From contig CAWESU010000003.1 in the NCBI GenBank assembly GCA_963811805.1, forward strand, positions 324,435 to 364,434: a stretch of DNA of 40,000 nucleotides, written 5' to 3'. Of the stretch, positions 5,252-40,000 are shown in pieces (the stretch's first letter is position 1; each line of letters starts with the position of its first letter). The DNA comes from an uncultured Acidobacteriota bacterium (lineage in GTDB: Bacteria > Acidobacteriota > Terriglobia > Acidiferrales > UBA7541). Both the position numbers and the translations under genes were made by a program. The notes below the pieces were generated by a model. That model ran no database searches. It worked only from the letters and a program-made list of their open reading frames with translations, and was not told the DNA's origin.

Positions 5252-5283
5252 CCATTTTCGCGCAAACAAATGGCGAGAAACTC

Positions 5284-5312
5284 TTGACACCGCGCGAAGC
5301 TCATCATATAAA
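5284..5312 (+). promoter_or_regulatory. sigma70-like promoter candidate for the Rieske/cytochrome b operon
   Basis: TTGACA (5284-5289), 17-nt spacer, TATAAA (5307-5312), 66 nt upstream of the Rieske ATG. It is bracketed by a perfect 9-bp inverted repeat: GCGCGAAGC at 5292-5300 and GCTTCGCGC at 5321-5329. Confidence 0.45.
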
Positions 5313-5377
5313 GTTTCTTTGCTTCGCGCTTCATAGTCATTCATCTTTAATACTGCGCGCAAAGCACTTACTGCTCG

Positions 5378-5959: not shown

Positions 5960-5988
5960 TCTTCGGTTTTCAAGGAAAAGGCGGAAGA

Positions 5989-6885: not shown

Positions 6886-6973
6886 CGCCGTTTGATGGGA
6901 ACGTCGGATTCTCTGGTGTACCCGCCCTGGCAAAATCGGGCGGCAGTTGAGCGCAAGAGGTGAGCGTTAACTA

Positions 6974-7963: not shown

Positions 7964-7990
7964 GCCTCGCGCACCATCACATCAAGGAGA

Positions 7991-11233: not shown

Positions 11234-11318
11234 TATCCTGTCAGGTGTGGCGTTATCGAATAACGGTATCATCCGGTGTTTCCGGCCAAGTTCAAATTTC
11301 AGGAGGAATAATCGCGTT

Positions 11319-20304: not shown

Positions 20305-20357
20305 GCCTACACTTACCGAACATCGCACTCGTCATCCGCTTTTGTTTTGCCTTAGGT

Positions 20358-20922: not shown

Positions 20923-20965
20923 AAACCTCTCCTGCGGATCCATCCTTCTGGAGGCGTTTGCCAGC

Positions 20966-21674: not shown

Positions 21675-23107
21675 AGAAGTTGTCCCGCCTTTAGTTGAAA
21701 CCTAAAAAAGGAAGCAGCGGCTCTCGACCCGAACTCGGATAGAGTTCGGGTTGCAAACTCTATTTTCAGAGGAGAGCCGCTGTGAGGAAAACCTATCAGG
21801 GAATGAAAGACAAGTGCAAGGAGAAGTTCGAAGTGCTTGGCAAGCGGGAGTTGCTGGAGGTGCCGCTGCCGATGGTCGAAGTGTGGGAGGAGCTGCAAGC
21901 CCAGGTGGAGCAGTTGACCGGGGCAGCGGGGCTGCGCATCATCGGCACGATTCTGGAAAACGAAGTGACCCGGCGCGTGGGACCGCCACACCGGCCGGAT
22001 CCGGTGTCGGGTGCCGTGCGTTGGGGGCGCCAGCCGGGTTACGTGGTGTTTGGCGGACAGAAAGTAGCCGTGGAACGTCCGCGGGTGCGCACACGAGAAG
22101 GTCAAGAAGTGGAGCTGGACAGTTACGCGCGGTTGCAGCACGACGGACGGCGGCAGCGCGCGGTGCGCGAAGGCATCGTCGCGGGACTGACCTCACGGAA
22201 CTATCGCCGCGCGGTGCAAAGCGTGGTGGATGGCTACGGGATCGAGAAGTCCAGCGTGAGCCGGGAGTTCGTAGCGGCCAGCGTGGCGCAGTTAAAAGAA
22301 CTCTGTGAGAAGAAACTCGACGGCGTGGACCTGGTGGCCATCCTGATCGACGGGATTCATCTCGGCAAACAAGTGCTGGTGGTGGCGCTGGGCATTGAAA
22401 TCAGCGGAGAAAAACACGTTCTGGGGCTGTGGCAAGGGGCGACAGAGAACACTACGGTAGTGAAGGAGTTGCTGGAGGACCTGGTGGTACGCGGCCTCGA
22501 TCCCGAGCGGCGTTACTTGTTCGTGATCGACGGAGCGAAAGCGTTGCGCGCGGGGATCGAGCGGGTGTTCGGCGAACGCGCCGAAGTGCAGCGCTGCCAG
22601 ATCCACAAGCGGCGGAACGTAAAAGAACATCTGCCGCAGAGCGCCCAGGGCGATACGGACCGGAGAATCCGCAACGCCTATGCGATGACCGAGTACGCGG
22701 CGGCCAAAGCGGAACTCGAGAAAATCTTCCGGCAACTGGAGCGCATCAACCCCAGCGCGGCACGGAGCCTCGAAGAAGGGCTGGAAGAAACCCTCACCGT
22801 GCACCGGCTCGGTGTGGGAACCCTGTTGCGGAGAACGCTGTCCTCAACCAATCCCATCGAGTCGTGCCTTTCGACCGTCGAGAAAGTAGCGCGCAACGTA
22901 AAACGCTGGCGTCAAGGAGAGCAAGCCTTGCGCTGGACGGCCACCGGGTTGTTGGAAGCGCAAAAGAAATTCCGGCGAGTGAAAGGCTACCGGGAACTGG
23001 AACTCTTGCATCGCCGGATGAACCCGTCGTTGACTCAACAGGAACAGGTCGCGTAACGTGCAGAAAGTCGAGAGCCGCTGCTTTCAACTAGAACTGGGAC
23101 AACTTCT
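21675..23107 (+). mobile_element. IS256-family insertion sequence (1433 bp)
   Basis: Terminal inverted repeats: AGAAGTTGTCCCGCCTTTAGTTGAAA on the left, and the reverse complement of the right end AGAAGTTGTCCCAGTTCTAGTTGAAA. A 15-nt subterminal match GCAGCGGCTCTCGAC is also present. Flanking direct repeat GAAAAAC at 21668-74 and 23108-14. Single transposase ORF. Confidence 0.85.
21782..23056 (+). CDS. IS256-family (Mutator-like) transposase
   Basis: 424 aa. ILIDGIHLG and FVIDGAKAL acidic blocks, plus VQRCQIHKRRNVKEHLP (the C-x2-H..RN signature of IS256 transposases). Alternative ATG at 21803. Confidence 0.85.
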   Translation: MRKTYQGMKDKCKEKFEVLGKRELLEVPLPMVEVWEELQAQVEQLTGAAGLRIIGTILENEVTRRVGPPHRPDPVSGAVRWGRQPGYVVFGGQKVAVERPRVRTREGQEVELDSYARLQHDGRRQRAVREGIVAGLTSRNYRRAVQSVVDGYGIEKSSVSREFVAASVAQLKELCEKKLDGVDLVAILIDGIHLGKQVLVVALGIEISGEKHVLGLWQGATENTTVVKELLEDLVVRGLDPERRYLFVIDGAKALRAGIERVFGERAEVQRCQIHKRRNVKEHLPQSAQGDTDRRIRNAYAMTEYAAAKAELEKIFRQLERINPSAARSLEEGLEETLTVHRLGVGTLLRRTLSSTNPIESCLSTVEKVARNVKRWRQGEQALRWTATGLLEAQKKFRRVKGYRELELLHRRMNPSLTQQEQVA

Positions 23108-26047: not shown

Positions 26048-26444
26048 GTCATCCTATTCAGGTTTGTTCACGCTACTATACTATAATACCGGGCGGTGTG
26101 TAGGGCTCCCCTCGCACTCTAGCCTGAAAATTATCCGTGTCTCACAAAACGTTGTGACGGGCGCGAAGCTACACCCACAGCGAGATCGAAGTTCAGGCTG
26201 CCGGGCGGTCTCTTCTCTTGCGAGAGTTCCTGCGCGAAACCACAAAAAAAGATCGAACGGCGAGCAGGCAGAGGGGTGGTCCCTTTTTCGCATGCATATA
26301 CGCATACTCCGCATACGTCTGACGGGATAGGAGACAGAAGCCCGCAAAGTTGCACCCCCTGTAAGGCGTTGCGTTTCTTGGAGGGATCGCGTTCAGTAGG
26401 ATTCAGGCTCTGAAAGCATTTCTGGGGGTGGAATAGAAACTAAC

Positions 26445-26612
26445 CTAGCGGCGCTTTCTGGCAAGTGTCTGACGGGCTGCGATCTTTGCCAAACCAAGCA
26501 CGATCCCTGAATTTGTCATCACTGCGTACCGCCAACGTTTCTCAGCCGCGCGCCTTGGCAAATCAAAATCCTCTTGGGTCATCTTCACATTTACCTGAAT
26601 CGTGCGTTTCAT
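26445..26612 (-). CDS. possible ribbon-helix-helix small protein (55 aa, below the ORF-track cutoff)
   Basis: My translation: MKRTIQVNVKMTQEDFDLPRRAAEKRWRYAVMTNSGIVLGLAKIAARQTLARKRR. A beta-strand followed by two helices is compatible with CopG/Arc folds. No partner gene and no clear RBS. Confidence 0.25.
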   Translation of the reverse strand: MKRTIQVNVKMTQEDFDLPRRAAEKRWRYAVMTNSGIVLGLAKIAARQTLARKRR

Positions 26613-26784
26613 GCCTTCTTGTATCTGCTAAACACAGAACGCCAGCAACGTTACTATTCGTACTGAAAATGCTTCCTGTACGTTCGGCCAGCTTACCGCT
26701 TAGGCATTCTGGTGCTCGACAGCGAGTTGACCAAAACGATCCGAGCTACACTGACGCAAGCATCCCACAAGGAGAGATAAACCG

Positions 26785-27402
26785 ATGAAACGGACGCTCG
26801 CAGTTTCAACTACGATCATTTTCATGCTCATGGTTACATCAGCCACTTTCGGACAAAGCACCACCGAGACGAAGAAGGAGCCAGTGAAACCTGTGGCTAA
26901 AACATCGGCTCTAGCAAGGACAGCGCCAAAGGAATCTCCAGATCGCGCTAAACCGGCCCAGTCATTTCACTCGTTGTTTTCCAGGAAACAAAAGGACGAG
27001 CCGGATCAACACGCGCGAGAAGCTCGCGGAGTAGAAGAAGTCCATCCGGCGGCTCGCCCACTTGAACCTCAGCACAGTTTTTACGAAGATCACTTGCAAG
27101 CAGCGCATGCGATTCGCGTTGAGGATCAACTGCATTTCGATGGGCGGCGCTTTGATGATGCCTATTTCGCAGCCAATTTCGGAATAAACCATTCACTCGT
27201 TGTGACGCCCGTCATTGTTCCTGGCGGAGGCACGTATATGTGGTTTGGCTCTTTTTGGTTCTCAGCACCCTCCATGCCAGTGGGATTTGTTTGGACCCGC
27301 CCGGTTTGTATTGAATATGACGCTGTCAACGGCTTTTATTACATGACTGACCTTTCAACCGATCCGCCGACCTTTGTGAAGGTTGAAGCCGTAGTGCAGT
27401 AG
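26785..27402 (+). CDS. hypothetical secreted protein
   Basis: GGAGAG RBS. Signal peptide MKRTLAVSTTIIFMLMVTSATFG. No recognisable domain. Confidence 0.6.
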   Translation: MKRTLAVSTTIIFMLMVTSATFGQSTTETKKEPVKPVAKTSALARTAPKESPDRAKPAQSFHSLFSRKQKDEPDQHAREARGVEEVHPAARPLEPQHSFYEDHLQAAHAIRVEDQLHFDGRRFDDAYFAANFGINHSLVVTPVIVPGGGTYMWFGSFWFSAPSMPVGFVWTRPVCIEYDAVNGFYYMTDLSTDPPTFVKVEAVVQ

Positions 27403-27457
27403 GAGATTCGAGCAGAGGTTCTCAAAATAATCTGCGGAAAACAGGAGAGAAAGAACC

Positions 27458-28030
27458 ATGAAGATAATTTTATCAGCTTTATTTCTTGGGCTGATTGCTA
27501 GCTTGGCGGTGGCGCAAGACCAACCACCGGCTCCCCAGTCCACAGTTTTTATGGGACACCAATTGGGCGAAACTGTTCAGCAATGGTTCAGCGCCAGCGA
27601 TGAGCCGAAAAGATGCGCGGAGTGGAAGAGGAATAAGGCTGACAACAAACTGTTTTGTAAAGTGGCAGACGACATCGCGCAAGGGAGATCGGGTATGCTC
27701 GATACCAGACAGCCGGGCGACAGCGTACTCGCAAGAGATCGCTGGTATTTTCAATATGGCAAACTCGCTGCACTAATCGGAACTTTTCTCCCCTACGACA
27801 AAACCCTCGCGGAACTTCGTGAAAAGTACGGCCCGGAAACGAAAAAGCAGGCAAAACTGGTCGTGCACGTGCTAAGCCCGACGTACCCTGTCTTTGGCGA
27901 AAAGTGGGCCATGCCCGACGGCACACTACTTTTCTTGGTAGAGGATACGCGTGCCGTCAATCATGCGAATCTCGTGATAAGCACGCAAGCGTATATCGAC
28001 CAACAGCAAGACGCAAACAATCCGTTTTGA
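27458..28030 (+). CDS. hypothetical secreted protein
   Basis: AGGAGAGA RBS. Signal peptide MKIILSALFLGLIASLAVAQ. No recognisable domain. Confidence 0.6.
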   Translation: MKIILSALFLGLIASLAVAQDQPPAPQSTVFMGHQLGETVQQWFSASDEPKRCAEWKRNKADNKLFCKVADDIAQGRSGMLDTRQPGDSVLARDRWYFQYGKLAALIGTFLPYDKTLAELREKYGPETKKQAKLVVHVLSPTYPVFGEKWAMPDGTLLFLVEDTRAVNHANLVISTQAYIDQQQDANNPF

Positions 28031-28116: not shown

Positions 28117-29022
28117 TTATTGAGGGAATAGATTTGGCGTTACACCGGAAGTCGAGCAAATTGCCTCAAGTTCTGGATAGTGCTCAATCAAGGTTGCGGG
28201 TGCCTTTACAGGACGTTTGGTAAGCAAATGGATAAGCTGAAGAGCGTTTACGATGGCTTTGCCCCGGTAATGATTGTTGGTGATTACGAACGTGGACTCG
28301 GAGTTTTCGGCGACGGTGTGGATGCGCTCCGCCCAAGGTTCAAGCTCTTTTCCGCTGTATAAATAGTTGTACCGATCCTCTGACGGCATGTTCGGATCGT
28401 CAGAAAACCAAGTATCGTACCGGCGTCCGTGAAGCCGGATGTAGCCCACTGGCGCTGTCGCGCGGTCTGACGGCCTGAGCGAGCGTCCAATCACCGGCTG
28501 GTCAACATTGCAAAAGCCGACGCCGCACTCCCCCAGCAGATCATAGAAGTCCTTCTCATTCCAGGATGCGTGACGAACCTCAACGACGAGGGGATATTCA
28601 GCGAAGCGAGCAAACAGTTTTTTCAAGTAACCAAGATTCTCCGGCGTGCGATGGAACGAGAAAGGGAATTGCGCAAGCACCGCGCCCAGTTTGTCGGCGT
28701 CCCGCAGCGGATCAAAACCGGCACGGACGGCCCGCTCATCTTCTATGTTCGCGTTCCGTTCGTGAGTGAATTTCTGCCAGAGTTTCGCTGTGAATAGGAA
28801 TCGTGGATTCTCCGCAACAAAGTCGATCCACTTCCGTGCCGTGTCCGGCTCGATTGGGGAGTAAAAAGAGGTATTGAGTTCGATGGCATCGAAGTACTGC
28901 GCCAAGTAAGCAGCTTCGTGAAAACCGGAAGGGCGGCGTTTGGGATAGACGATTCCCGCCCAGTCTTTGTACGACCATCCGGCGGGGCCGATGCGAACTG
29001 GCGCGGGTTTTGGAGATTCCAT
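28117..29022 (-). CDS. DUF72 (YecE-like) family protein
   Basis: IGPAGWSYKDWAGIVYP N-terminal signature, FDAIELNTSFY, and VEVRHASW, typical of DUF72. Confidence 0.8.
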   Translation of the reverse strand: MESPKPAPVRIGPAGWSYKDWAGIVYPKRRPSGFHEAAYLAQYFDAIELNTSFYSPIEPDTARKWIDFVAENPRFLFTAKLWQKFTHERNANIEDERAVRAGFDPLRDADKLGAVLAQFPFSFHRTPENLGYLKKLFARFAEYPLVVEVRHASWNEKDFYDLLGECGVGFCNVDQPVIGRSLRPSDRATAPVGYIRLHGRRYDTWFSDDPNMPSEDRYNYLYSGKELEPWAERIHTVAENSESTFVITNNHYRGKAIVNALQLIHLLTKRPVKAPATLIEHYPELEAICSTSGVTPNLFPQ

Positions 29023-29082: not shown

Positions 29083-29703
29083 ATGACTCTACCCCTCGCG
29101 TCAACCCGCACGGAACAGCATTCTTCTCTGAATCCGTGGGTTCTCCCACTTCGACAGTTGTCCGTTTTCTATGGCTCGCCGCAAGTGCCGCGTCTCTCGC
29201 ACTACTTCCTGCCGAGACTTTTGCTGAATGATGAGCGCGTTCTGTTTTTAGACGGAGCCAATCAGTTTGACCCTCTTTTGCTTGCTCGGTTTGCCCATAA
29301 GCGAGGGCGTGACAGTTCCTCTTTCAATCGGCTCGTGCGTGTTGCGCGGGCTTTCACATGCTTTCAGTTGACGGAGCTAATCACACGCACGCCAAATTTC
29401 TTGAACAGTTTTCCGGCGAAGGTTTTGGTGATTACGGCTATGCCCGATTTGTTTTTCGATGAAGACGTGCGGGAGCATGATGCGCGAGCATCGTTTGAAC
29501 ACGCGCTAGAAGGATTGCGGCAGATTGTACGCGATTCAGTTCCGCTTGCCGTTTTCTCAGATGCGACTTCCTTCCACACGGGGCGACTAGGGTTCTTCCA
29601 TCAACTCACCAAACAGGCCGACAGGCTCTTGAAAGTCGAAATACGAGCGGATGACAAACTCGCCTTCACTTGCGAGAAAGAGACGCCCCAATTACCAACC
29701 TAG
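29083..29703 (+). CDS. RecA/RadB-fold protein with degenerate P-loop (ImuA-like in architecture)
   Basis: LSVFYGSPQVPRLSHYF sits where RecA/RadB proteins have GxxGxGKT. Also RVLFLDGANQFDP, VRVARAFTCFQLTELI and a Walker-B-like KVLVITAMPDLFFDE. ATG 29083 is chosen because the longer track ORF runs antisense into DUF72. Confidence 0.55.
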   Translation: MTLPLASTRTEQHSSLNPWVLPLRQLSVFYGSPQVPRLSHYFLPRLLLNDERVLFLDGANQFDPLLLARFAHKRGRDSSSFNRLVRVARAFTCFQLTELITRTPNFLNSFPAKVLVITAMPDLFFDEDVREHDARASFEHALEGLRQIVRDSVPLAVFSDATSFHTGRLGFFHQLTKQADRLLKVEIRADDKLAFTCEKETPQLPT

Positions 29704-29724
29704 TCGTTTTGCCGGAGAGATGTT

Positions 29725-30078
29725 ATGGGCCGCACAGTTCCCACTTTTGTTCAACTCGTTCAGCAAACCATCCAACGATGGGCGAAATTCCGCCGCGCTC
29801 TTAGACGCGAAGATCAGCCTCACTTCGACAAACTATTCCTTTCGGTGAGAGGGTACACACAAGCGGCAACCTACCAATGCAGTGACAATCCGATGGAAGC
29901 CATTCTTCTTTCCGTGGCGCTCGATCAAGAGAAACGCATCGCGGCACTTGAAAAGCTCGTGAAGGGAAGCGAAGAAAACCATGCGACTGAACGGCTGGAT
30001 TCTCGATCTCTATCCCGGCCAACAAGGAATGACAATTTGGCTGATCGACGCGAATCAGGCTCACTACCGTTTAAGTGA
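29725..30078 (+). CDS. small hypothetical protein, 3' end overlaps PolB-1 by 98 nt
   Basis: GGAGAG RBS 5 nt upstream. MGRTVPTFVQLVQQTIQRWAKFRRALRREDQPHFDKLF... is helical, with no recognised family. Confidence 0.45.
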   Translation: MGRTVPTFVQLVQQTIQRWAKFRRALRREDQPHFDKLFLSVRGYTQAATYQCSDNPMEAILLSVALDQEKRIAALEKLVKGSEENHATERLDSRSLSRPTRNDNLADRRESGSLPFK

Positions 30079-32200
30079 CAGCTTTGCTCCGGCTTTCTAT
30101 GTTTCAGGAGCCGCCGAGAAACTCTCGCACTTGCAACGGTCGTTGGAGCAACAGCGCGCTCCCGTTATTTGCCAGTCCACGGAGCGAATTGACCTCTGGC
30201 AGAACAGGCTCCGGCAAGTTCTGAAAATCTCCGTCCAATCACCGGTTGAATTTGTCCGATGGGGGCGTTGGGTACATCGTTTCGATTCTCGCCTTCAGCT
30301 TTACAACAGCGACCTCATGGTTGCTTCGCTTTATTGTTGGCAGACAAATGTCTTTCCCCTTGCGCGCGTCGAAGTTGAAGCAGACGAAAACGGGAACGTA
30401 CAACGCATGGAACGGCGCGACGATGAATGGGCGCTGGATTACGAGCTTCCGCCGCTCAAGATTATGCAGATTCGGCTTGTGGGTTTTTCACGAATTGACC
30501 CGAACCACGGTCGCCGAGCGGCACTCGAAATTGAAAGCGAGGGCCGCTGCTTCGAGTTAGATGAAAATGACGAACCGCCCGCGCTCGGTTTTGCTCGTTT
30601 GTTGAAGCGCGAAGACCCGGACGTGATTTTATCCGAGTGGGGCGACGCGACAATCTTGCCGCTATTACGCGAGCGAGCCAGCCGCCTGAAACTTTCCTTG
30701 CAACTGAATCGCGATTCTTCCGTTCCCGTGCAACAAAGCAAGCCGCACAGCTTTATGAGTTATGGGCGGATTCTTTTCAAAAACAGCGCCACTACACTGT
30801 TTGGGCGTTTGCACGTGGACAAACAGAACTCTTTCATCTCCGAGAAATGCGACTTCGCCGGCCTTTGGGAATTGGCACGCATCACGAAGCTGCCCGTCCA
30901 ATATGCGGCGAGAACAACCACGGGAACGGGAATCTCCTATATGCAGATGGAGCTTGCCTATCACGATGGCGTGTTGATCCCGGAACAAAAGGCCGAGCCG
31001 GAAGACCCAAAGCAACCCGATGAAATACTGGCCGCAGATCGTGGCGGATTGGTTTTTGTGCCGAAGCTGGGTTTTAGGCCGAACGTCGCAGAGTTGGACT
31101 TTGTAAGTGAATATCCAAGCATCATGGCGCGATTCAATATCTCGCCAGAAACCGTGAATTGCTCTTGCTGCCCCGATGCCCCGCGCATTCCGGAACTCGG
31201 CTACCGTGTCTGCCATAAGCGACGCGGAATCACAAGTCGGATTGTCGAACGCCTCATTGCGAAACGCACGGAATGGAAGCGGCGGCTGCCAACCTCGCCA
31301 TTGGAACTTGTGCAACGCTACAAATTGCAGCGCGATTCACTCAAATGGCTTCTCGTTTGTTGCTTCGGCTATACGGGCTACAAAAATGCACGCTTCGGCA
31401 AGATTGAAGCGCATGAAGCCATCAATGCCGTGGCGCGCGAGACTCTACTTGTCGCAAAAGAAATCGCCGAGAGTCACGGTTTCGAGTTGATTCACGCACT
31501 AGTGGACTCACTCTACGTTTGGAAAGAACATGCCAGCCGCAAGGACTACGAACAACTCGCCCATGAGATCGAGGGCCGTACGGGACTTCCGTTAGCAATC
31601 GAAGCCGTCTATCGCTATGTGGTGTTTCTCCCATCTCGGCAATATGCGGATGTCCCCGTTCCGAATCGTTTCTTCGCTGTCGGTGAAGATGGTGAACTGA
31701 AAGTTAGAGGTCTCGAATGCCGTCGCCATGACACGCCGCCATTCATTGCACGAATGCAGCGTGAAGTGCTCTCGATTCTGGCGGAAGCCACTGACTACGA
31801 TAGCTATCTCAACAAGCTCGAAACAGCGCGAGAAGTTTGGCACAACTACGAAGAGAAACTGACGAACGGAGACGTGGACGTACAGGACTTGGTAGTGAGT
31901 AAACGAATCACACGAGAACCGCGTGAATATCAGAAGGCTAATCTTACGGCCATTGCCGCACAGCAGCTTTTCAGTTGCGGTGTCAAGTTACGCCCCGGAC
32001 AGGCGGTTGAGTACGTTATCACCAACGCAGACGCCGCCGTTCCCAATGATCGCGTTTGCGCCTTTCCGTTGTGGGGAGGGTGGCAAGGATACGACCGGCA
32101 CAAGTACAGAGCAATGCTGCAAGAGGCATTCGCGCCGTTCCTCGCCATTGCGCAGAAATATGATGGCTCGATAGCGATTCCGGCGTTGTACTTGGCCTAG
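29981..32200 (+). CDS. divergent family B DNA polymerase, exonuclease motifs lost (PolB-1)
   Basis: Archaeal/Pol II-like N-terminus (GWILDLYP...FAPAFYVSG). Motif A LDFVSEYPSIM. Motif B KWLLVCCFGYTGY. Motif C reduced to HALVDSLYV. The KxY region is NRFF. The ExoI site is LKIMQIRLVG with no D/E, and the ExoII site is WGDATILPLL. Confidence 0.8.
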   Translation: MRLNGWILDLYPGQQGMTIWLIDANQAHYRLSDSFAPAFYVSGAAEKLSHLQRSLEQQRAPVICQSTERIDLWQNRLRQVLKISVQSPVEFVRWGRWVHRFDSRLQLYNSDLMVASLYCWQTNVFPLARVEVEADENGNVQRMERRDDEWALDYELPPLKIMQIRLVGFSRIDPNHGRRAALEIESEGRCFELDENDEPPALGFARLLKREDPDVILSEWGDATILPLLRERASRLKLSLQLNRDSSVPVQQSKPHSFMSYGRILFKNSATTLFGRLHVDKQNSFISEKCDFAGLWELARITKLPVQYAARTTTGTGISYMQMELAYHDGVLIPEQKAEPEDPKQPDEILAADRGGLVFVPKLGFRPNVAELDFVSEYPSIMARFNISPETVNCSCCPDAPRIPELGYRVCHKRRGITSRIVERLIAKRTEWKRRLPTSPLELVQRYKLQRDSLKWLLVCCFGYTGYKNARFGKIEAHEAINAVARETLLVAKEIAESHGFELIHALVDSLYVWKEHASRKDYEQLAHEIEGRTGLPLAIEAVYRYVVFLPSRQYADVPVPNRFFAVGEDGELKVRGLECRRHDTPPFIARMQREVLSILAEATDYDSYLNKLETAREVWHNYEEKLTNGDVDVQDLVVSKRITREPREYQKANLTAIAAQQLFSCGVKLRPGQAVEYVITNADAAVPNDRVCAFPLWGGWQGYDRHKYRAMLQEAFAPFLAIAQKYDGSIAIPALYLA

Positions 32201-32262: not shown

Positions 32263-33828
32263 TCAGCACTGAATCTCTTGTGCGCTTCTCTTACAACCAG
32301 TGAATCCAACTAACTCCGCGAGCTTTCTCCAATGCCTCGGATGCGGGACGCGCTTTCCTGTGCGTATGTCCGTCGCATATGGCTTCGAGACTGCAAGAGT
32401 CAACGCGATGGCTGGAATCGTAAAAGCCGCTAGCTTTGGCCGAATCTCTTCGCGGTAGACTCTTTCAGTCAACCACTTGGGTAAGTCAGAGGACTTCCAC
32501 AAAGTTCTACCCGTCATTTGCCGACGCATTGTCTCAGAACGGCGCGCCTGAGCCTTCGCGTTGTGGGCCGTTGTTCTTCCGAGTTGGGCAACTTTCAGAA
32601 TTGCTGTCTTGGATTCGTTTAACGCACATGATTTACACAGAGTATTGCCACAAGTGATCGCCGTACCGCAGATTCGGCAGACAGACGGCGGATGCGGCAC
32701 CGGAACCGGGCGAAGACTCAAATCTTCTCCGGTGCGGCTTCGGCGCTGCTGTGTCAACCGCGTGGCCGGGCCAGCCGCTACGGCAGGTTTTCTCATGGTT
32801 GACCACAGCTTACGGCATACGCTCTCTGCTACGGGCGCGACGGCCCAAGCCCAAGTCTGCGCGGTTTCCGAAAGCCGCGCTGCAAATGAACCGACTAGCC
32901 GACAATTGCCATCCGGCTGTTCAAAAAACCATTCTCGGCGCAGTGGCTCACGATTGATCCAGTCGAACACGTAAGCGTCAACTCGCGGGCGAATCGGTTC
33001 CATCAGATCAGACGCGAGGCTGTCGCGCGTCCGGCTATCGAAATGCAATACGCCAAGACCGGGATCGAGGCCAAGCGCGGCAGCGGCTAACCGAGCTTCG
33101 GATTCAAGCAGCGCGTAAAGATAATTGAGCATTGCGTTCGGCGGATTCACAGCCAATCGGGGAGAACCTGTGAGCGGCGAAGCACGAAGCCCGAATTTGA
33201 GCCAATGATCCGGTACGCGACGAAGATCAGCCTTGGCGAACATGATCGGTACGTTGCGCCATGCACCCCAGTATGCTTTTGCTGCTTGGGACTCGAAAAA
33301 CCGCAAGTCATCAATCGAATTCGCGGATGGAAGCTTTTCGCGAGCACTGGCAATCTGCGCAGCCACACCCGTATCGTGAAACTTTTCGCGAATCAGCCGC
33401 TCTTGCGCAACGAGCTTTTGATCTAGCAATTCTTGCGAAATCTGCAAACCCACTTCGGAGCGATACGCCAGAGCTTGGGCGCGTCGCAATCGAGCATCGG
33501 ACGGACGAACTGGGCCAGTTGTGGCGAGCACGGAACCCTTGCGATCCAGCATCACAAAGCTAGCGTCTTGATCGGCCAGCCAGCGAAGCGCGGAGAGAGT
33601 GACGGTGCCATCGTTGCCGATCACCACAAGCCGCCTGATGCCATGCCCGATGCGGGCAAACCGCGCAGTAGTTCGGCGCGAGCCGATGCCGTCATGGATG
33701 ATGAGATGTCCTCGATCCACGCGGACATCAATGCCATAGCCGAATAGCGTCACGACTCCATGTCTCGGTTCAATCGGGATGAAATTGCAGTGCTCGGAAA
33801 GTTGCGGTACCGTTTGCGTAGCTGCCAT
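32263..33828 (-). CDS. cas1: Cas1 homolog (casposase-like) with C-terminal zinc ribbon and basic/HTH-like extension
   Basis: N-domain LFGYGIDVRVDRGHLIIHDG...LVVIGNDGTVTLSALRWL. Catalytic blocks FFESQAAKAYWGAW (E), NAMLNYLYALLESE, and LGVLHFDSRTRDSLASDLMEPIRPRVD (H, D). Extension carries CRICGTAITCGNTLCKSC. Confidence 0.85.
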   Translation of the reverse strand: MAATQTVPQLSEHCNFIPIEPRHGVVTLFGYGIDVRVDRGHLIIHDGIGSRRTTARFARIGHGIRRLVVIGNDGTVTLSALRWLADQDASFVMLDRKGSVLATTGPVRPSDARLRRAQALAYRSEVGLQISQELLDQKLVAQERLIREKFHDTGVAAQIASAREKLPSANSIDDLRFFESQAAKAYWGAWRNVPIMFAKADLRRVPDHWLKFGLRASPLTGSPRLAVNPPNAMLNYLYALLESEARLAAAALGLDPGLGVLHFDSRTRDSLASDLMEPIRPRVDAYVFDWINREPLRREWFFEQPDGNCRLVGSFAARLSETAQTWAWAVAPVAESVCRKLWSTMRKPAVAAGPATRLTQQRRSRTGEDLSLRPVPVPHPPSVCRICGTAITCGNTLCKSCALNESKTAILKVAQLGRTTAHNAKAQARRSETMRRQMTGRTLWKSSDLPKWLTERVYREEIRPKLAAFTIPAIALTLAVSKPYATDIRTGKRVPHPRHWRKLAELVGFTGCKRSAQEIQC

Positions 33829-33834: not shown

Positions 33835-34977
33835 TTAACCCTCCGTGGTAGTTAGGGGCGCGTTCGGTGTTCTAGCACCGGCGCGTCCCGCTTTTGCCGT
33901 AACCCTTATTTTACCCTTCCGTTTAGGAACACGCGCCTTTTTTCTCGGTAGTGACAGCTTCTCTCGTGAATCGCGAACGTTATCAAGCGAGGTTTTAGGG
34001 CGAGAAACATTCCTTAGATAAGCAGATGTGATCGCATAAGGAATGAATGCCTGCTGATGCTTGGATTTTAATACCTCTTCGACTGCAAGCCTGAAGTCGC
34101 GCCACTGCTGACAAATCGAGTCACGCGGATAATTTTCCTTCTTTGGTAAGTTCAGAAGCGCCGCCCGGAACCTCTCCGCTAAAGATTTGCCTCTCCTCGC
34201 GCCGACACGCAGGAACAGACGCTCAACGAGTCGGAAAACAACATACGGATGTTGCGCGAAGGAATCCGCTGGCATCTTTGAACATCGAGTGTCCGATTGC
34301 CGCCATCGCATGTAAGGCAAGCCTGCCAGAGCGTTTGCAAGGTTGAGCGGCGTGAGTGCGCGTTTTCGCTTTCCCTCACTTCGCAAAAAACTCAGTAGCT
34401 CAGAACAATACAAATACACTTCTCCGTTGCGGAGCTGATCTTCGAGCAAGACGCACTCCCGCTGTTTCGCATCAAAAGTCTTTTCGTGGTGCCTCAATTT
34501 CCTACGACACCGGCGACGTTCGTTCCGAAAAGTAGTTTTGTCCTTTTCGTCCGCTTGTTTGACCGCGTTCGCTGCCTCAGCGCAAGCCTGCTGAAGCCCT
34601 GGATACTTTCGCTGCATGTCCTGAAGCTCATACCTGAGTCTGGTGCTTGTTAGGGCGTATTTTCGGAGTTCTCGTACCGTTGCGTGTTGCGGCTCCCCTC
34701 GCAAGAAAGCTCTAGCGTGATCGCAGTGCGGTTTGTCCACAACTCGCTTAAAGACCCTTTGCACATCCGTGATCGTGCTGCTTCTGCGCTTGCGAATCCG
34801 CAATAAGTGCCAGCCAATTTCGGGCCAGCATTGCTCGAAGAATACTTGCCACTGATTCCGGCTGCCCAAAAGAGAGTTATCGGGGATTGTTGGGCGACCC
34901 CCCTTATTAGGTGTTTCCGGTTCCTCCGAAACTGTGTCCATAGGGTCGAAACTAAAATCCCCGCCAGAAAACTCCAT
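33835..34977 (-). CDS. hypothetical basic protein, co-operonic with cas1
   Basis: 380 aa. AGAGG RBS. Stop lies 6 nt before the cas1 ATG. KGGRPTIPD near the N-terminus and a K/R-rich tail (RKKARVPKRKGKIRV). No recognised family. Confidence 0.6.
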   Translation of the reverse strand: MEFSGGDFSFDPMDTVSEEPETPNKGGRPTIPDNSLLGSRNQWQVFFEQCWPEIGWHLLRIRKRRSSTITDVQRVFKRVVDKPHCDHARAFLRGEPQHATVRELRKYALTSTRLRYELQDMQRKYPGLQQACAEAANAVKQADEKDKTTFRNERRRCRRKLRHHEKTFDAKQRECVLLEDQLRNGEVYLYCSELLSFLRSEGKRKRALTPLNLANALAGLPYMRWRQSDTRCSKMPADSFAQHPYVVFRLVERLFLRVGARRGKSLAERFRAALLNLPKKENYPRDSICQQWRDFRLAVEEVLKSKHQQAFIPYAITSAYLRNVSRPKTSLDNVRDSREKLSLPRKKARVPKRKGKIRVTAKAGRAGARTPNAPLTTTEG

Positions 34978-35137
34978 CGCAATTTGCCTCTATCGCCAGA
35001 AAACCGACTTTTGATGTGTGCACATTTCCCGAAAACCCCCATTTTTGCTGCTCTTGCCGGGCCGTGCAGGTTCGGAATACCCGGTGTAAAACGGATACGT
35101 CTGCACCGATTCTCTCACGATGAAAGTGAGGAAAACC

Positions 35138-35710
35138 ATGAGGCGGTCACGGAAATACAACAGGGCAAGAAAAAGCAAGAAGCCCAGCCTAAGTCGGAGT
35201 CGGAGAGTTCGCGTAGCTGCGCCACGAACGGCTAAGCAATTCTTCGCGAAGCCGAATGAGTTTCAAGAGACGTGGACTCGTGTAGCACACGTCGTTTCCA
35301 AAATGCGAACGGAACGAACCTCTCTTCGTGAAGCTTCGCGCGAATTCGGCCTCGATCCTCGCATTGTGACCCGGCTCGGCAAGTCGGCTTTGCGTAAGCG
35401 GAAGAATGGGCAGTACGTCGCAAAGCGCAGCGACAAGCTCTTGCGCATTCTCGCGATTCCTACAGCCGATGGCGTGCGCGAGATCGCGATTCGGGACTCG
35501 CGCCAAGCTACCATTCTCGGAAAGTATTGGGCCGCAGTCCAAAAGTATCTGCAAACTGGCGATGCCTCAGGCTTAAAGAAATTCCATCGCAAACGCATTA
35601 CCGATGCGAGCCGCAGGCGCGTGCCGCTAATCACAGACCAAGCTGAGTTAGACCGGCTCGGCTCTGCCGGTGTGCTGTCCTTTGAATCGCTTTATGCAAA
35701 GGTCGCCTGA
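35138..35710 (+). CDS. hypothetical HTH-containing basic protein
   Basis: ATG 35138 follows a GAGGA RBS; the track start 35120 is also possible. K/R-rich N-terminus. HTH-like TSLREASREFGLDPRIVTRLGK. Confidence 0.55.
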   Translation: MRRSRKYNRARKSKKPSLSRSRRVRVAAPRTAKQFFAKPNEFQETWTRVAHVVSKMRTERTSLREASREFGLDPRIVTRLGKSALRKRKNGQYVAKRSDKLLRILAIPTADGVREIAIRDSRQATILGKYWAAVQKYLQTGDASGLKKFHRKRITDASRRRVPLITDQAELDRLGSAGVLSFESLYAKVA

Positions 35711-36202
35711 TTGAGAAGAAAGGTACAAATTCGCGATCCGATTGCGGCACATCAGCGCAAAGCCGTTGCCGTGCGCCGCGTTGGATTTGATGCGCAATGC
35801 GCGTGCGGCGAATCGCGGCCTGAAGCACTTTTGAGCGGAAGTAATCCGGCCATCTGCGCTGCTTGTGATCGGAAGCGACGCGGCAAGGCAACGCTGGATC
35901 GCCATCACATCGCGGGCAAGTCGAACAGCGCGGTCACAATTCCAATTCCTGTTAACGATCATCGCGCCCGACTCAGCGCCGATCAACACGATTGGCCGAA
36001 GCAAACGCTGGAAAATCCGAACGGCAGTCCGCTACTGGCTGCCGCTGCATCACTCCGGGGATATTCGGATACAACCATCTATCTCCTCGAAACGTTACTG
36101 CATCCCGAAATGCTCGAAGCACTGGATGCGCTCTTGATACAAAAGCTCGGCCCGGAATGGTGGATTGGTACGCCGATGGAAAAATATGCGCAGAGACGAT
36201 AA
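35711..36202 (+). CDS. HNH-like zinc-finger nuclease domain protein
   Basis: CACGE...CAACDRKRRGKATLDRHHIAGKSNSAVTIPIPVNDHRARL fits a Cys4 knuckle plus the HH...N...H layout of the HNH/His-Me finger. TTG start abuts the upstream stop. 3' end overlaps the PolB-2 start. Confidence 0.5.
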   Translation: MRRKVQIRDPIAAHQRKAVAVRRVGFDAQCACGESRPEALLSGSNPAICAACDRKRRGKATLDRHHIAGKSNSAVTIPIPVNDHRARLSADQHDWPKQTLENPNGSPLLAAAASLRGYSDTTIYLLETLLHPEMLEALDALLIQKLGPEWWIGTPMEKYAQRR

Positions 36203-39200
36203 CCACAAACCGAGCAAGGCTTTACTTCCGCTCGCTGTCCGCATCTACCCGGAACCCGAAAAGCCGAAGCAAGAACAGCGAGCTGATCGCCCGCTGCGGC
36301 ACTGGCGTTGTCCAGATGCGATGCTGGTTTTCGACACGGAAACGAGAACCGACGCAACCCAGCGGCTTACTTTTGGCAGTTACCGATTTCTTGTTGCAGG
36401 GCAATGTCGCGAAGAGGGCTTGTTCTATGCTGATGATTTACCGGCGAGAGACCTAGCGATCCTCAAGGATTACATTGCGAGACATAAAGCCGATGTCGCA
36501 GACAGCAAGGCGGAGCTTCGCTTGCTCACGCTTTCCGAATTCTTGGATAAGTTCTATCGGGCTGCGTACAAATCTCGCTGCTTGCTTGTGGGATTTAATC
36601 TTCCGTTCGACTTATCGCGCATTGCCGGGGACGTTGCACCGGCTCGCGGTCGTTTCGCAGGCGGCTTTTCATTGGGACTCTGGTTTTATACTGATAAGTC
36701 GGGACGGAAACGACGGCATCAAAATCGGCCCCGAATCGGAGTCAAACAGATTGACGGCAAGCGGGCACTGAAGGGATTCACTGGGCAGAATAATCCTGAC
36801 AAATCAGACCTGATCCCCGAAGGTTCGGAAACCGGCGGTGCACCTGAAGATGGCTATAAGTTTCGAGGCCACTTTCTCGACTTGCGCACGCTCGCGTTTG
36901 CGCTGACAGATCAGAGCTACTCCCTCGAATCCGCGTGCGAAGCATTCGGTGTCGAACATGGAAAACAACGTGCCTCTCGGCACGGCGAGGTCACAGAAGA
37001 ATATATTGATTACAACCGGCGCGACGTTCTGGCCACGTCAGAATTAGCTGAAAAGCTTTCCCCAGAATACGAAAGGCACAGACTGTCACTTCAGATAACG
37101 AAAGCATATTCACCCGCTTCCATCGGAAAGGCATATCTGCGAGAAATGGGCATTGAGCCGATTCTCAAAAGGCAGCCGGACTTTCCCAAGAAATATCTTG
37201 GCTTTGCGCAATCGGCATTTTTCGGCGGGAGAACCAGCGCACATATCCGCAAAGTTCCCGTCCCAGTCGTTTACACCGATTTTCTTTCGATGTATCCGAC
37301 AGTGAACAGCTTAATGCGGCTGTGGCGGTTTGTGATCGCTCGCGAAATTAAGGTTGTTGAACATTGCGAAAGAGAAACCACCCGTTTTCTGGAAGAAATA
37401 AAAAATAATCCCCCTTGCTTGTTCGATCCTCATACGTGGGAACGGTTAACCGCCTTTGTGAAAGTCATTCCCGATGGCGATATTCTGCCAACCCGGAGCA
37501 AATACAATGCGGCCAGCAATGATTGGCAAGTGGCCGTGAATTATCTTTACGCGGGAGAGCACAAAGCAAATAAAGCTCTATGGTTTTCTCTTCCCGATGT
37601 AATTGCTTCCGTGCTCCTAAGCGGCAAGATTCCGACAGTCGTAAATGCATTTCGCATTGAAGCGCATGGCGTTCTTGATGGATTAGAGCCAACAAAGCTG
37701 TACGGAGCAATTGAAGTTGATCCACGAAAGCAGGATTTCTTCAAAAGAGTAATTGAAGAAAGAAAGCGGCTTGGTTTTCAATCGAACGTCTCCCCCAATG
37801 AGAAAAAGAAACTCGATAAGGCATTGAAAGTTCTTGCGAATGCTACCAGCTACGGAATCTATGCGGAAATGAACCGGCAAGAGTCAGATCACAAAAACAT
37901 TAGGGTGAAATGTCACGGGATAGATGCAGAGCCTTTCACCTGCTCCGTTGCTCACCCTGATGATCCCGGCGAGTATTGTTTTCCGCCGATGGCTTCCCTG
38001 ATAACCGGAGCAGCCCGGCTGATGCTCGCATTATTGGAGTACTCCGTCACAAAGCTGGGTGGCACATACGCTATGGAAGATACCGATTCAATGGCGATTG
38101 TAGCGACTGAGAACGGCGGAATGATTCTATGCCCCGGCGGTTCTCTCAAAACAAACAATGACCGCAAAGTGGTAAGAGCACTATCTTGGAAGCACGTTCA
38201 GCAAATCGCGGATCGTTTCGCTGCTTTGAATCCGTATGCAAATGATGCAGTACCGGGATCAGTCCTCAAACTCGAAGAGGATAATTTTGATCCGGTAACA
38301 CACAAACAGCGCCAGCTTCACTGCCTCGCAATTTCTGCAAAGCGATATGCACTTTTTCTGTGCAATTCAAAGGGCGAGCCTGTTCTTCTTCGAGACGGAA
38401 TCAATAACCGTGCCGACAGGTGGTCAGAACACGGTCTAGGCCATCTTTTGAATCCAATGGACTTGGAAAATGAGGATCGCAACTGGATCGCGCAAACTTG
38501 GCTGAACATCATTCGCAAAGCTCTTGGATTATCGGCCAAACGGTTAAATTTTGAGAATTGTCCCGCAGTAGGCCGAATCACCGTGAGCAGTCCTGCCGTC
38601 ATGCTTCCGTTAAACAAAATAAATCAACGAAAGAATTATGCAAATCAAATTAAACCATTCAATTTTCTTTTATCGTGTCACGTGAAGCAGCTTGGCCATC
38701 CCATCGGCAGTGATCCTGAGCATTTTCATTTAATCGCGCCGTATGAATCCGATTCAAAACGATGGACAGCAATCGAATGGATAGATCAATACACCGGAAA
38801 AAGGTACAGAATCACAACAACTGAACCACACGGAAACCGGCACACGGCGCGCGTGAAAACGTATGGAGATGTTCTAATCGAATATGAATTTCACGCCGAA
38901 ACAAAGAATGCAGATAAAGAGGGGAATCCATCTGGAAAACAAACTATCGGCCTTTTGCAGCGGCGGTATGTTCAAATAGACCAAATCAAATACATCGGAA
39001 AAGAATCCAATAGCATAGAAGATGTCGAATCAGGATTGGCGCATTCCGAAGCCGATGTTTACACGCACTATCCCGATCCCCGGCGCGATGAGTGGGAAAT
39101 AAAGATTAAGCCCGCTTTGAGAAAAGCCGCGCTGTCCGTTCTGGAGAAAGAAACGGGCCTTTCCCGCCGAACTCTCATTTATGCGCGGACGGGTAAGCGC

Positions 39201-39263
39201 AAGCCACACCAAAAACACCGGAAATTGCTGGTTTCGGCTCTCCGAAAACTGAACCTTATCTGA
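36186..39263 (+). CDS. family B DNA polymerase with intact exonuclease and polymerase motifs, protein-primed-like architecture (PolB-2)
   Basis: ExoI LVFDTET, ExoII VGFNLPFDL, ExoIII YIDYNRRDV, pre-A FFGGR, motif A YTDFLSMYPT, motif B KVLANATSYG, motif C AMEDTDSMA, KxY ISAKRYAL. A C-terminal extension of about 290 aa ends in HTH-like ETGLSRRTLIYARTGKRK. Start is ATG 36186 or TTG 36165. Confidence 0.85.
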   Translation: MRRDDNHKPSKALLPLAVRIYPEPEKPKQEQRADRPLRHWRCPDAMLVFDTETRTDATQRLTFGSYRFLVAGQCREEGLFYADDLPARDLAILKDYIARHKADVADSKAELRLLTLSEFLDKFYRAAYKSRCLLVGFNLPFDLSRIAGDVAPARGRFAGGFSLGLWFYTDKSGRKRRHQNRPRIGVKQIDGKRALKGFTGQNNPDKSDLIPEGSETGGAPEDGYKFRGHFLDLRTLAFALTDQSYSLESACEAFGVEHGKQRASRHGEVTEEYIDYNRRDVLATSELAEKLSPEYERHRLSLQITKAYSPASIGKAYLREMGIEPILKRQPDFPKKYLGFAQSAFFGGRTSAHIRKVPVPVVYTDFLSMYPTVNSLMRLWRFVIAREIKVVEHCERETTRFLEEIKNNPPCLFDPHTWERLTAFVKVIPDGDILPTRSKYNAASNDWQVAVNYLYAGEHKANKALWFSLPDVIASVLLSGKIPTVVNAFRIEAHGVLDGLEPTKLYGAIEVDPRKQDFFKRVIEERKRLGFQSNVSPNEKKKLDKALKVLANATSYGIYAEMNRQESDHKNIRVKCHGIDAEPFTCSVAHPDDPGEYCFPPMASLITGAARLMLALLEYSVTKLGGTYAMEDTDSMAIVATENGGMILCPGGSLKTNNDRKVVRALSWKHVQQIADRFAALNPYANDAVPGSVLKLEEDNFDPVTHKQRQLHCLAISAKRYALFLCNSKGEPVLLRDGINNRADRWSEHGLGHLLNPMDLENEDRNWIAQTWLNIIRKALGLSAKRLNFENCPAVGRITVSSPAVMLPLNKINQRKNYANQIKPFNFLLSCHVKQLGHPIGSDPEHFHLIAPYESDSKRWTAIEWIDQYTGKRYRITTTEPHGNRHTARVKTYGDVLIEYEFHAETKNADKEGNPSGKQTIGLLQRRYVQIDQIKYIGKESNSIEDVESGLAHSEADVYTHYPDPRRDEWEIKIKPALRKAALSVLEKETGLSRRTLIYARTGKRKPHQKHRKLLVSALRKLNLI

Positions 39264-39511: not shown

Positions 39512-39631
39512 GCGACACCTGTACGGGAGTCCAGCTTACCCTTCAGGCATAAATCCTACTGAAAATGCCGCCTCAACGCCAAGCACCCTCACAATTGTGC
39601 ATATCGCTGAAACCCAAAGGAGAAGATCCAA

Positions 39632-40000
39632 ATGAAGGCAATAGCACTGGCAACGACAATTATCATTTTCGTAATTGCTCCCTCTGCGTTCGCAGATCAT
39701 AGCAAGACAGTTCCCATGACTTGCGAAGCGGCCATCCATGAAGCAGAAGCCGTGGTCGTCGCGCAAAAACACGGTTACAAGGAACCCGGCCCACAAGACA
39801 TGGTTCTAAAAATCACTAGCTCCAATGTCGGCAAAACCGTGGGAGCGGCGGTGATCTTTCCGCCAGCCTTACTTTGGTCGCACCCGAAATTCGGCGCACT
39901 GACGTTCAGCGCATCAACAGATGGAAAATCGTGCATCGTCAAATCCACTGGTCAACCAGCGGATCAGGCGCTCAAGGATTGGGACAAAGACAGTAACTAG
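39632..40000 (+). CDS. hypothetical small secreted protein
   Basis: AAGGAGAAG RBS. Signal peptide MKAIALATTIIIFVIAPSAFA. Stop TAG at 39998-40000. Confidence 0.6.
   Translation: MKAIALATTIIIFVIAPSAFADHSKTVPMTCEAAIHEAEAVVVAQKHGYKEPGPQDMVLKITSSNVGKTVGAAVIFPPALLWSHPKFGALTFSASTDGKSCIVKSTGQPADQALKDWDKDSN

Follow-up and report, generated by a model that had tools for sequence, protein, structure and literature searches.

The window analysed here is a whole stretch of 40,000 nt from an Acidobacteriota (Candidatus Acidiferrales-like) chromosome, and the open reading frame (ORF) of 1032 amino acids (aa) at 36165-39263 is probably the replicative polymerase of a 13,980-bp casposon inserted in that chromosome, a member of a bacterial casposon family whose replicase is of the protein-primed family B DNA polymerase (pPolB) type. 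All the defining casposon features that were looked for were found, namely a Cas1 integrase with conserved catalytic residues, a family B DNA polymerase (PolB), terminal inverted repeats (TIRs), a target site duplication (TSD) of 14-15 bp, a Cas1 which stands alone, and mobility, the last from comparative evidence. The comparisons rest on relatives found in 186 stretches of species-representative genomes, from which 82 loci were tested by tblastn for the gene module, and on a family alignment and profile of 73 sequences that are 34-62% identical to the window PolB. Loci carrying PolB relatives are labelled with L-numbers (L002, L084 etc.). The reference polymerases were taken from public records, and the phi29 sequence was checked against PDB 1XHX.

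Judged from its sequence, the ORF is an intact family B DNA polymerase with a proofreading exonuclease. It opens with TTG, and the ATG at 36186, which the gene callers chose on identical public contigs, is the probable start, with a 17-nt overlap with the stop of the upstream gene. The original prediction had read all PolB motifs as intact, and eight of eight were recovered at the residues given there. The polymerase and its parts are as follows:

36165-39263, plus strand: pPolB-type family B DNA polymerase, 1032-aa ORF from TTG; 1025 aa from the probable ATG start
36330-37025, plus strand: 3'-5' exonuclease motifs ExoI-ExoIII
aa 56-60: ExoI, FDTET
aa 145-149: ExoII, NLPFD
aa 283-287: ExoIII, YNRRD
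aa 352-356: pre-motif A, FFGGR
37275-37301, plus strand: motif A, TDFLSMYPT, aa 371-379; D372 in 72/73 and Y377 in 73/73 relatives
37317-37727, plus strand: insertion at the position of terminal protein region 1 (TPR1), aa ~385-521, aligned by hhalign with phi29 ~261-355; mixed alpha/beta in the model
37827-37856, plus strand: motif B, KVLANATSYG, aa 555-564
37863-37976, plus strand: insertion of ~38 residues at the position of TPR2, aa 567-604, aligning with phi29 392-424; four short beta strands
38076-38090, plus strand: motif C, EDTDS, aa 638-642
38334-38348, plus strand: KxY, SAKRY, aa 724-728; K726 in 72/73 and Y728 in 71/73 relatives
38397-39089, plus strand: C-terminal region, thumb and extra alpha/beta domain(s), aa ~745-975; conserved family-wide and confident in the model
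39090-39248, plus strand: C-terminal four-helix helix-turn-helix (HTH) tail, aa 976-1028; weak XRE-type HTH match

The residues D57, E59, D149, Y283, D287, D372, Y377, K555, Y563, G564, D639, D641, K726 and Y728 are each retained in 70-73 of the 73 relatives (>=95%). Because the catalytic residues are kept to this extent at so low an overall identity, the motif pattern is not a matter of chance and the motifs are under selection. Motifs A and B are 183 residues apart and motifs B and C 84 residues, and 304 residues follow KxY. In phi29 DNA polymerase, TPR1 comprises residues 261-358, with motif A (D249) on one side of it and motif B (K383) on the other, and TPR2 residues 395-426. The placing of TPR1 between motifs A and B, and of TPR2 between motifs B and C, is documented (PMC5695915). 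The spacing of about 180 aa between motifs A and B had been explained in the original prediction as a TPR2 insertion; the long spacing stands, but its position is that of TPR1 and not of TPR2, because phi29 TPR1 falls between motifs A and B. A separate, short insertion follows motif B, and the sequence 'PMASLITGAAR' flanking it matches 'PMGVFITAWAR' of phi29. A first AlphaFold model, built on an alignment of 25 sequences, was poor (predicted local distance difference test (pLDDT) score 56.5) and its fold search uninformative, which was remedied by the 73-sequence alignment (pLDDT 93.2, predicted template modelling score (pTM) 0.92). The latter model was checked for TPR1 and TPR2, and beta-rich structure was seen at the insertions which the profile alignment had located at both TPR positions, with strands at 569-571, 579-584, 591-595 and 599-601 in the second of them. 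By this alignment, the two insertions would be homologous to phi29 TPR1 and TPR2.

The ~290-residue C-terminal region has pLDDT values mostly above 85 in the model, while sequence profiles of it found no match in Pfam and the PDB, in line with the earlier reading that some 290 residues past KxY are without a recognised counterpart. The HTH-like basic tail described at the same time was likewise seen in the model, as four helices at 976-987, 990-997, 1001-1009 and 1016-1028. This tail is 36% identical over 42 aa (pairwise E 7e-4) to aa ~462-503 of the Cas1 protein encoded upstream.

The enzyme had been read as fitting the supergroup formed by the pPolBs and the primer-independent PolBs (piPolBs), and the profile comparisons agree with this. 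In profile-profile comparison by hhalign, the family gave 98.2% (E 4e-14, 321 columns, score 123) against four pPolBs (phi29, Bam35, PRD1 and His1), 95.3% (E 2e-8, score 81) against three piPolBs and 3.8% against two RNA/DNA-primed PolBs. The match to the pPolB profile joins aa 251-649 to phi29 127-466, that is, from ExoIII to motif C through both TPR regions. Small family profiles were needed here, as hhalign with a shallow profile or against single sequences was weak; single references set against the 73-sequence profile gave 88% for Bam35, 86% for PRD1, 67% for phi29 and 41% for His1, and 3.7% for E. coli Pol II, 3.5% for the piPolB of pSE-12228-03 and 1.5% for a second, 739-aa PolB of the window (PolB739). 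DNA_pol_B_2 is the only Pfam polymerase family which the window protein matches (25.8 bits, exactly the gathering threshold, aa 272-380). Among 120 homologues listed of more than 3,600 word-index matches, many carry a precomputed PF03175 match and none carries PF00136. The comparison of the two hidden Markov models (HMMs) thus gave matches to DNA_pol_B_2 and never to DNA_pol_B. Single-sequence searches of the PDB, NCBIfam and PADLOC with the window PolB found nothing, and tblastn found no relative in 50,697 phage records, 72,556 plasmids or IMG/VR. Among predicted viral structures (BFVD) the top matches of the model are the polymerases of His1, Streptomyces tectivirus WheeHeim, Tectiviridae sp. 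and GA-1, and in the PDB phi29 is the best match by target-normalised TM-score (0.53). In piPolBs the signature KH-X8-KTRG replaces KxY and motif C is a variant one (PMC5695915); among the three piPolBs fetched, TTDG was found at motif C in two and KTRG in one. These signatures are absent from the window PolB, which has KxY and DTDS instead of KTRG and TTDG. On the sequence and the model together, the window PolB appears to belong to the supergroup of pPolBs and piPolBs, and within it looks like a pPolB.

The ends of the element were located by comparison among the relatives. TIRs of 30-290 nt, which begin with GGGATAGGAG and follow the motif GGGATAGGAGAYAG...AAAxTGCACCCC, enclose the module at both ends in 33 genome loci. 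The TSDs in these loci are exact, 14 bp long in 30 and 15 bp in 3, and the elements measure 10,873-17,496 bp. With metagenome loci added, there are 40 complete related elements with exact 14/15-bp TSDs, and the same TIR/TSD pattern occurs in the distant members L134, L147, L157 and L165. A TSD of 14-15 bp is a signature of casposase integration (PMC4046053). The sequence TTGAC abuts the TIR in 24 of the 40 TSDs, 12 in each orientation, where the chance expectation is ~0.2%. In the window the left end is represented by the following features:

26310-26323, strand not assigned: predicted left TSD copy, 14 bp of host DNA, CGCATACGTCTGAC, by analogy with L084; the right copy would fall past the window
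26324-26360, plus strand: left TIR, GGGATAGGAGACAGAAGCCCGCAAAGTTGCACCCCCT, with the exact family TIR motif at 26324-26337

The locus L084 (GCA_049675275.1) holds a copy with both TIRs and an exact 14-bp TSD, GCCGCCAAGTTGAC. Its right TIR lies 1,040 bp past the polymerase stop (L084:14105-14118, minus strand), which predicts the partner of the window's left TIR at ~40267-40303. By this analogy with near-identical copies, the window element would be 13,980 bp long and run from 26324 to ~303 bp past the window end. A generic search for inverted repeats within the window gave no TIR pair, because the right end falls 303 bp past it. Upstream of hrcA-grpE-dnaJ, the L084 site (L084:14119-14175) shows a duplicated GTTGAC, a 17-nt spacer and TAAACT, and it looks as though the element had inserted at the -35 box of a promoter of sigma-70 type.

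In 13.7 kb, L084 and L085 each differ from the window at 1 position and L086 at 16, and the left flanks differ among L084, L085, L086 and the window copy. Moreover, L086:1-152 is the junction of a head-to-tail tandem, in the order right TIR, 14-bp GCCGCCAAGTTGAC, left TIR. Near-identical copies at different sites and a tandem pair therefore indicate recent transposition, as far as sequence comparison can tell. Two family members also lie ~15 kb apart on one Acidobacteriota contig, CAWEFX010000005.1 (L021 and L039). The long-read contig L049, of 15,747 bp and from a metagenome-assembled genome of Eremiobacterota, ends 2-7 nt from both TIR termini and has perfect TIRs of 165 nt. This is as expected for a free linear copy and is circumstantial support for replication initiated at the ends. 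L038 (15,738 bp, near the size of L049) has perfect inverted ends of 77 nt which are not the family TIR motif and may be an assembly effect. When contigs of ~11.8 kb were tested for terminal direct or inverted repeats, most proved to be integrated copies with short flanks.

The PolB family is large, with more than 3,600 word-index matches, of which the 120 listed are mostly unnamed or 'hypothetical protein' and roughly 950-1090 aa long. A profile search gave 7,095 clusters at 50% identity, 2,229 of them at E<1e-30, and the best 150 clusters are mostly full length with the C-terminal region included. The hosts in the records are Acidobacteriota (Terriglobia, Bryobacterales, Acidoferrales, Vicinamibacterales) and Eremiobacterota/Vulcanimicrobiota. 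Relatives also occur in two isolates, Tunturiibacter psychrotolerans X4BP1 (NZ_CP132941, copy at ~5,879,132-5,891,843) and T. lichenicola MP8S11 (NZ_CP132944, copy at ~1,057,184-1,071,338), both of which have complete copies with TSD. The module has a fixed order, that is Cas1 with zinc-binding domain (ZBD) and HTH, a variable gene, an HTH protein, a Zn-ribbon/HNH-like protein and PolB, and was found by tblastn in 72-75 of the 82 genome loci. With HMMs, the count covered 94 loci whose upstream DNA exceeds 6 kb, and in 91 of them Cas1 was found upstream and on the other strand, including loci whose PolBs are only 38-48% identical to that of the window. The original prediction had called a bacterial Cas1-linked pPolB unusual; the linkage is real and the hosts are bacterial, but there is a precedent in the Toil-like proviruses of Streptomyces (PMC5894146). 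The genes of the module upstream of the window PolB are as follows:

32263-33828, minus strand: casposase of 521 aa with Cas1 domain (Pfam Cas_Cas1, E 2e-42), CxxC...CxxC zinc module and C-terminal HTH
33835-34977, minus strand: gene of poor conservation, lying between cas1 and the operon of the polymerase, a 380-aa ORF (204 aa by one gene caller)
35120-35710, plus strand: o196, core HTH protein with basic N-terminus, HTH and invariant C-terminal LSFES(L/I)YA; in 74/82 loci
35711-36202, plus strand: o163, core protein with a Zn ribbon (CxC...CxxC), then HH...N...NDHR; in 75/82 loci

The best solved relative of the casposase is the enzyme of Methanosarcina mazei (6OPM, E 8e-20). Its residues E242, H262, D274 and E277 are conserved wherever the residue is present (73-74 of 82 rows, the rest being gaps), apart from one row with E at H262. 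The gene at 33835-34977 keeps its position in all loci, while its similarity is detectable in only 5 of 82, and family searches with it gave no match. Weak matches to HTHs of the HTH_23, HTH_28 and ISL3 types were obtained with 5-6 of 12 members of the o196 group, in which S187, S190 and Y192 are invariant. By sequence, o196 would be an accessory protein that binds DNA, and the Ser/Tyr residues invariant at its C-terminus make it a candidate terminal protein. In o163 the invariant residues are C32, C49, C52, H66, N72, D83, H84 and R85. Pfam HNH was matched weakly by 1 of 12 members (E 0.18), and the protein is a putative HNH-like nuclease. By position it is a terminal-protein candidate too, as its gene overlaps the polymerase start in the way the terminal protein genes of Bam35 and PRD1 do.

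Apart from the core module, the window element carries the following genes:

26465-28030, plus strand: cargo ORFs of 107, 205 and 190 aa, without Pfam or PHROG match
28117-29022, minus strand: DUF72 cargo gene (Pfam DUF72, E 4e-55)
29158-32200, plus strand: cargo module of a ~181-206-aa protein, a 117-aa ORF (29725-30078) and PolB739 (29981-32200, 739 aa)
39632-40000, plus strand: final gene of the element, 122 aa with a hydrophobic N-terminus; it is followed by the right TIR ~270 bp past the window end

PolB739 matches Pfam DNA_pol_B (E 4e-27) and is PRK05761-like in NCBIfam. Its translation shows degenerate forms of ExoI ('MQIRL') and motif C ('ALVDSLY'), and it is probably catalytically dead. 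It was absent from all 82 genome loci tested. Its relatives are widespread proteins of ~740 aa, many of them 75-77% identical and annotated 'DNA polymerase II', in variable islands of Acidobacteria which lack Cas1. In one such island (L175) a ~204-aa gene and a DUF8156 gene lie upstream of the ~740-aa PolB, and in another (L177) there are a ~206-aa gene and the PolB, with no DUF8156 match recorded. The 117-aa ORF of the window has a precomputed DUF8156 match on its identical copies L085-L087, while the direct Pfam scan was empty. Because of its absence from the 82 loci, its degenerate motifs and the occurrence of its relatives in Cas1-less islands, PolB739 is cargo and not the hallmark polymerase of the element.

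Some repeats were also noted near the element ends. A near-copy of ~45 nt of the polymerase 3' end (...CCGAAAGCTGAACCTTATCTGA) is present at L084:13980-14030, equivalent to ~40165-40215 and ~80 bp before the right TIR, and its sequence suggests that a segment of ~0.9 kb with the 122-aa gene was inserted between polymerase and TIR. A likeness of ~50-60 nt (~80%) in direct orientation joins 26658-26707 and 39518-39578, near both element ends; these repeats had been considered as att sites or borders and were dropped once the true TIRs were located. The segment 26446-26707 recurs in the relatives L003 (3359-3620) and L062 (6164-6417), in opposite orientation and directly beside cas1, which could be due to rearrangement or to a shared regulatory or binding site. 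No Cas2 and no CRISPR array were found in the window element. In L002 (ERZ1761205 JX_farmland_Scaff00105040; element 107-11790), the cargo between the left TIR and the casposase gene (L002:432-4166) includes a Cas9/IscB-like protein of 997 aa (Pfam RRXRR and HNH_4, both above threshold), a C-terminal fragment of Cas4 and a mini CRISPR array of four identical 38-nt repeats (ATTCTAGATCGCGCGCCGAACAAATCCTAGAGTGAAAG) with three unique spacers of ~36 nt. The Cas9/IscB-like gene was found in no other locus, and among the loci scanned L002 is the only one with an array inside a delimited element. CRISPR-like matches in L024 and L144 turned out to be coding tandem repeats, and an array in L015 was rejected as an element array and is probably that of the host.

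Outside the element, the window contains an insertion sequence of the IS256/Mutator family at 21674-23108, with the transposase at 21782-23056 and inverted repeats of 27 nt (85%) at 21674-21700 and 23082-23108. Two minus-strand genes for TIG/beta-propeller surface proteins (20966-22141 and 23084-26047) either flank it or are interrupted by it. The region 20338-20925, downstream of the NAD synthase gene, contains three copies of an intergenic repeat of ~60 nt (TTGTTTTGCCTTAGGTGTCATTCTGAGCGGAGCG...CGAAGAATCTCGCCTC) together with shorter GC-rich repeats, and may be an element like the repetitive extragenic palindromic (REP) sequences or the miniature inverted-repeat transposable elements (MITEs).

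On the proposed mechanism, the casposase would cut at the TIR ends and integrate the element by a cut with a 14-bp stagger, with a preference for sites beside TTGAC. The polymerase would copy the excised linear element from its G-run termini with a protein primer, for which o163 and o196 are candidates, and would owe its processivity and strand displacement to the TPR2-like subdomain. Polymerase and casposase might be brought to the same terminal sequence, the TIR, by the related HTH tails which they carry. The termini of the element begin with a G run, like GGGGATACG of PRD1, and those of the window (26324-26331, GGGATAGG...CACCCCC) resemble the PRD1 end GGGGATACGTGCCCC in having a terminal G run, then ATA, and a C run nearby. 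Such G-run termini are compatible with sliding-back initiation and, like L049, lend circumstantial support to replication that starts at the ends. Protein priming by the window PolB is what we infer.

Several observations weigh against a protein-primed casposon replicase. By Foldseek E-values in the PDB, phi29 is not separated from archaeal and eukaryotic PolBs, and the family profile matches the three piPolBs as well. The right end and right TSD of the window copy both lie past the window and were placed from near-identical copies, and a free linear form is represented by one contig only, L049. Neither o163 nor o196, the two small proteins just upstream of PolB, resembles a known terminal protein; what they do resemble is an HNH-like zinc protein and an HTH protein, respectively. 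HTH and HNH genes are also core genes of the RNA-primed casposon families (PMC4046053). The main rival, which we regard as unlikely, is a piPolB-like mode, in which DNA would be synthesized de novo at the element ends, or synthesis re-primed on damaged DNA, without a terminal protein. The absence of a recognisable terminal protein or primase from the element would suit it, as would the piPolB profile match (95.3%, E 2e-8), the similar overall size (piPolBs have 1007-1109 aa) and the correspondence of D59/E61 and D368 in the E. coli piPolB (PMC5695915) with D57/E59 and D372 here. However, the family keeps KxY (K726 and Y728) and DTDS and lacks the signatures of piPolBs, the score with the pPolB profile is the higher one (123 against 81), tblastn shows no relationship to plasmid-borne piPolBs, and the context consists of Cas1, TIRs and a TSD, not of a tyrosine recombinase and direct repeats.

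It is very improbable that the element is a tectivirus-like (Toil/Bam35-like) provirus which acquired a Cas1 and whose polymerase is the viral replicase. Streptomyces noursei and S. albulus offer a precedent (PMC5894146), the size of 11-17 kb, the TIRs and the pPolB are all tectivirus-like, and the structural neighbours include the polymerases of WheeHeim, Tectiviridae sp. and Toil; yet the neighbouring genes have no PHROG matches, the phage records searched by tblastn and IMG/VR hold no relative, and the cargo varies between copies. Furthermore, the smallest complete elements (10.9-12.2 kb) consist of the five-gene core with a few small or non-structural genes, and leave no space for a module of capsid and packaging ATPase. 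Even less credit is given to the Cas1-PolB module being a domesticated host system for CRISPR-like adaptation, repair or defence. Although the family is widespread in two phyla and often present in a single copy per contig, and L002 has a small CRISPR array and a Cas9/IscB-like gene near cas1, against it stand the TIRs and exact 14/15-bp TSDs seen at many sites unrelated to each other, as well as the near-identical copies in different places and the tandem copies, and apart from L002 no array was found in the loci scanned for arrays, nor any Cas2 or array in the window element. The least probable reading is that PolB739 is the polymerase of the casposon, in the style of families 2 and 3, and the 1032-aa ORF a gene of the host or of a neighbouring, unrelated element. 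PolB739 adjoins and converges with cas1 and is of the DNA_pol_B type, as in family 2/3 casposons, but it occurs in none of the 82 genome loci, where the polymerase beside Cas1 is in every case of the 1032-aa type, it has a degenerate ExoI and motif C, and its relatives lie in Cas1-less islands, at least one with the same ~204-aa and DUF8156 genes upstream. Both polymerases are, besides, enclosed by one TIR pair with one TSD.

Casposons are proposed ancestors of the CRISPR adaptation machinery. A study of 2023 covered 54 casposon Cas1 sequences in four families, and the literature catalogue has a few dozen casposons, with the pPolB-bearing ones confined to Nitrosopumilus (PMC9966878). The combination of Cas1 and pPolB in bacteria was earlier noted only in rare Toil-like Streptomyces proviruses which encode capsids (PMC5894146). 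In the openly searchable literature we found no description of this family of casposons, and it is probably undescribed. On balance, we are inclined to think that the polymerase marks a fifth, unrecognised and by far the largest casposon family, which is bacterial, relies on a replicase of protein-primed type, abounds in the Acidobacteriota and Eremiobacterota of soil (its clusters at 50% identity number in the thousands) and transposed recently. If this is true, casposon excision, protein-primed replication and integration become testable in culturable bacteria, the Tunturiibacter isolates, since recently active copies are available in cultivated strains. The pairing of a casposase with a pPolB would then be ancient or recurrent and not a thaumarchaeal oddity, the known diversity of casposons would be greatly enlarged, and the pPolB casposons would extend into bacteria. 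The polymerases would also add to the pPolBs a new and highly diverged branch, marked by a ~230-residue domain whose fold is unknown and by an HTH like that of the integrase, which is of interest to the study of how polymerases evolved and perhaps to enzyme engineering. For annotation, it is of note that public records mostly give 'hypothetical protein' for these genes, and that the degenerate PolB739 is easily mistaken for the casposon polymerase.

Among known replicons, the PolBs of phi29, GA-1, PRD1, Bam35 and His1 have in common with the window family the motifs Exo I-III, YxGG, A, B, C and KxY. They too have insertions where TPR1 and TPR2 lie, and their replicons carry TIRs. Compared with phi29-like PolBs, however, the window family is only 12-17% identical, 300-450 residues longer, undetectable by BLAST and accompanied by no recognised terminal protein. 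The piPolBs of pipolins (PMC5695915) belong to the same supergroup and have a similar length and TPR-like insertions, while they carry KTRG, TTDG and a tyrosine recombinase with att repeats where the window family has KxY, DTDS and Cas1 with TIRs. The Toil-like proviruses found in Streptomyces noursei/albulus are likewise bacterial and integrated and combine Cas1 with a pPolB, but they are rare chimeras encoding a double jelly-roll capsid, whereas the window family is very large and virion genes were undetected in it.

Family 1 casposons (Nitrosopumilus, Thaumarchaeota; PMC4046053) are alike in the Cas1 integrase, the PolB of protein-primed type, the TIRs, the TSD and the small conserved genes upstream of polB. 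Their polymerases are reported as sister to that of His1 (PMC4046053), which is also the top viral structural neighbour of the window PolB. On the other hand, their hosts are thaumarchaeal and those of the window family are Acidobacteriota and Eremiobacterota; their Cas1 has no extra domains, while that of the window family (521 aa) has a zinc module and an HTH, and core genes for an HTH protein and a putative HNH-like protein are present in the window family. By the descriptions, the window polymerase is further set apart by its greater length (~300 aa more) and by having a C-terminal domain and an HTH. Because the Cas1 architecture and the host differ, we place the element outside family 1. 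Family 2/3 casposons (Euryarchaeota; in bacteria Ca. Acetothermum and Nitrosomonas AL212) have a core of Cas1-HTH (with ZBD in family 3), HNH endonuclease, HTH protein and PolB, and family 2 is described as having a similar HTH at the C-terminus of Cas1 and PolB (PMC4046053). They share with the window family the HTH on Cas1 and PolB and the TSD of 14-15 bp, their own size being 6-16 kb, and the M. mazei casposase, the closest solved casposase relative, is a family 2 enzyme. Their PolBs, however, are of the RNA-primed, archaeal type (PolB_CDTDS group) and the window PolB is of the pPolB type (98.2% against 3.8%), and the element stands outside families 2 and 3 because the polymerase type differs. 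Features once thought to separate the families would be mixed here, in that a polymerase of the family 1 type is combined with a casposase and accessory genes of the family 2/3 type.

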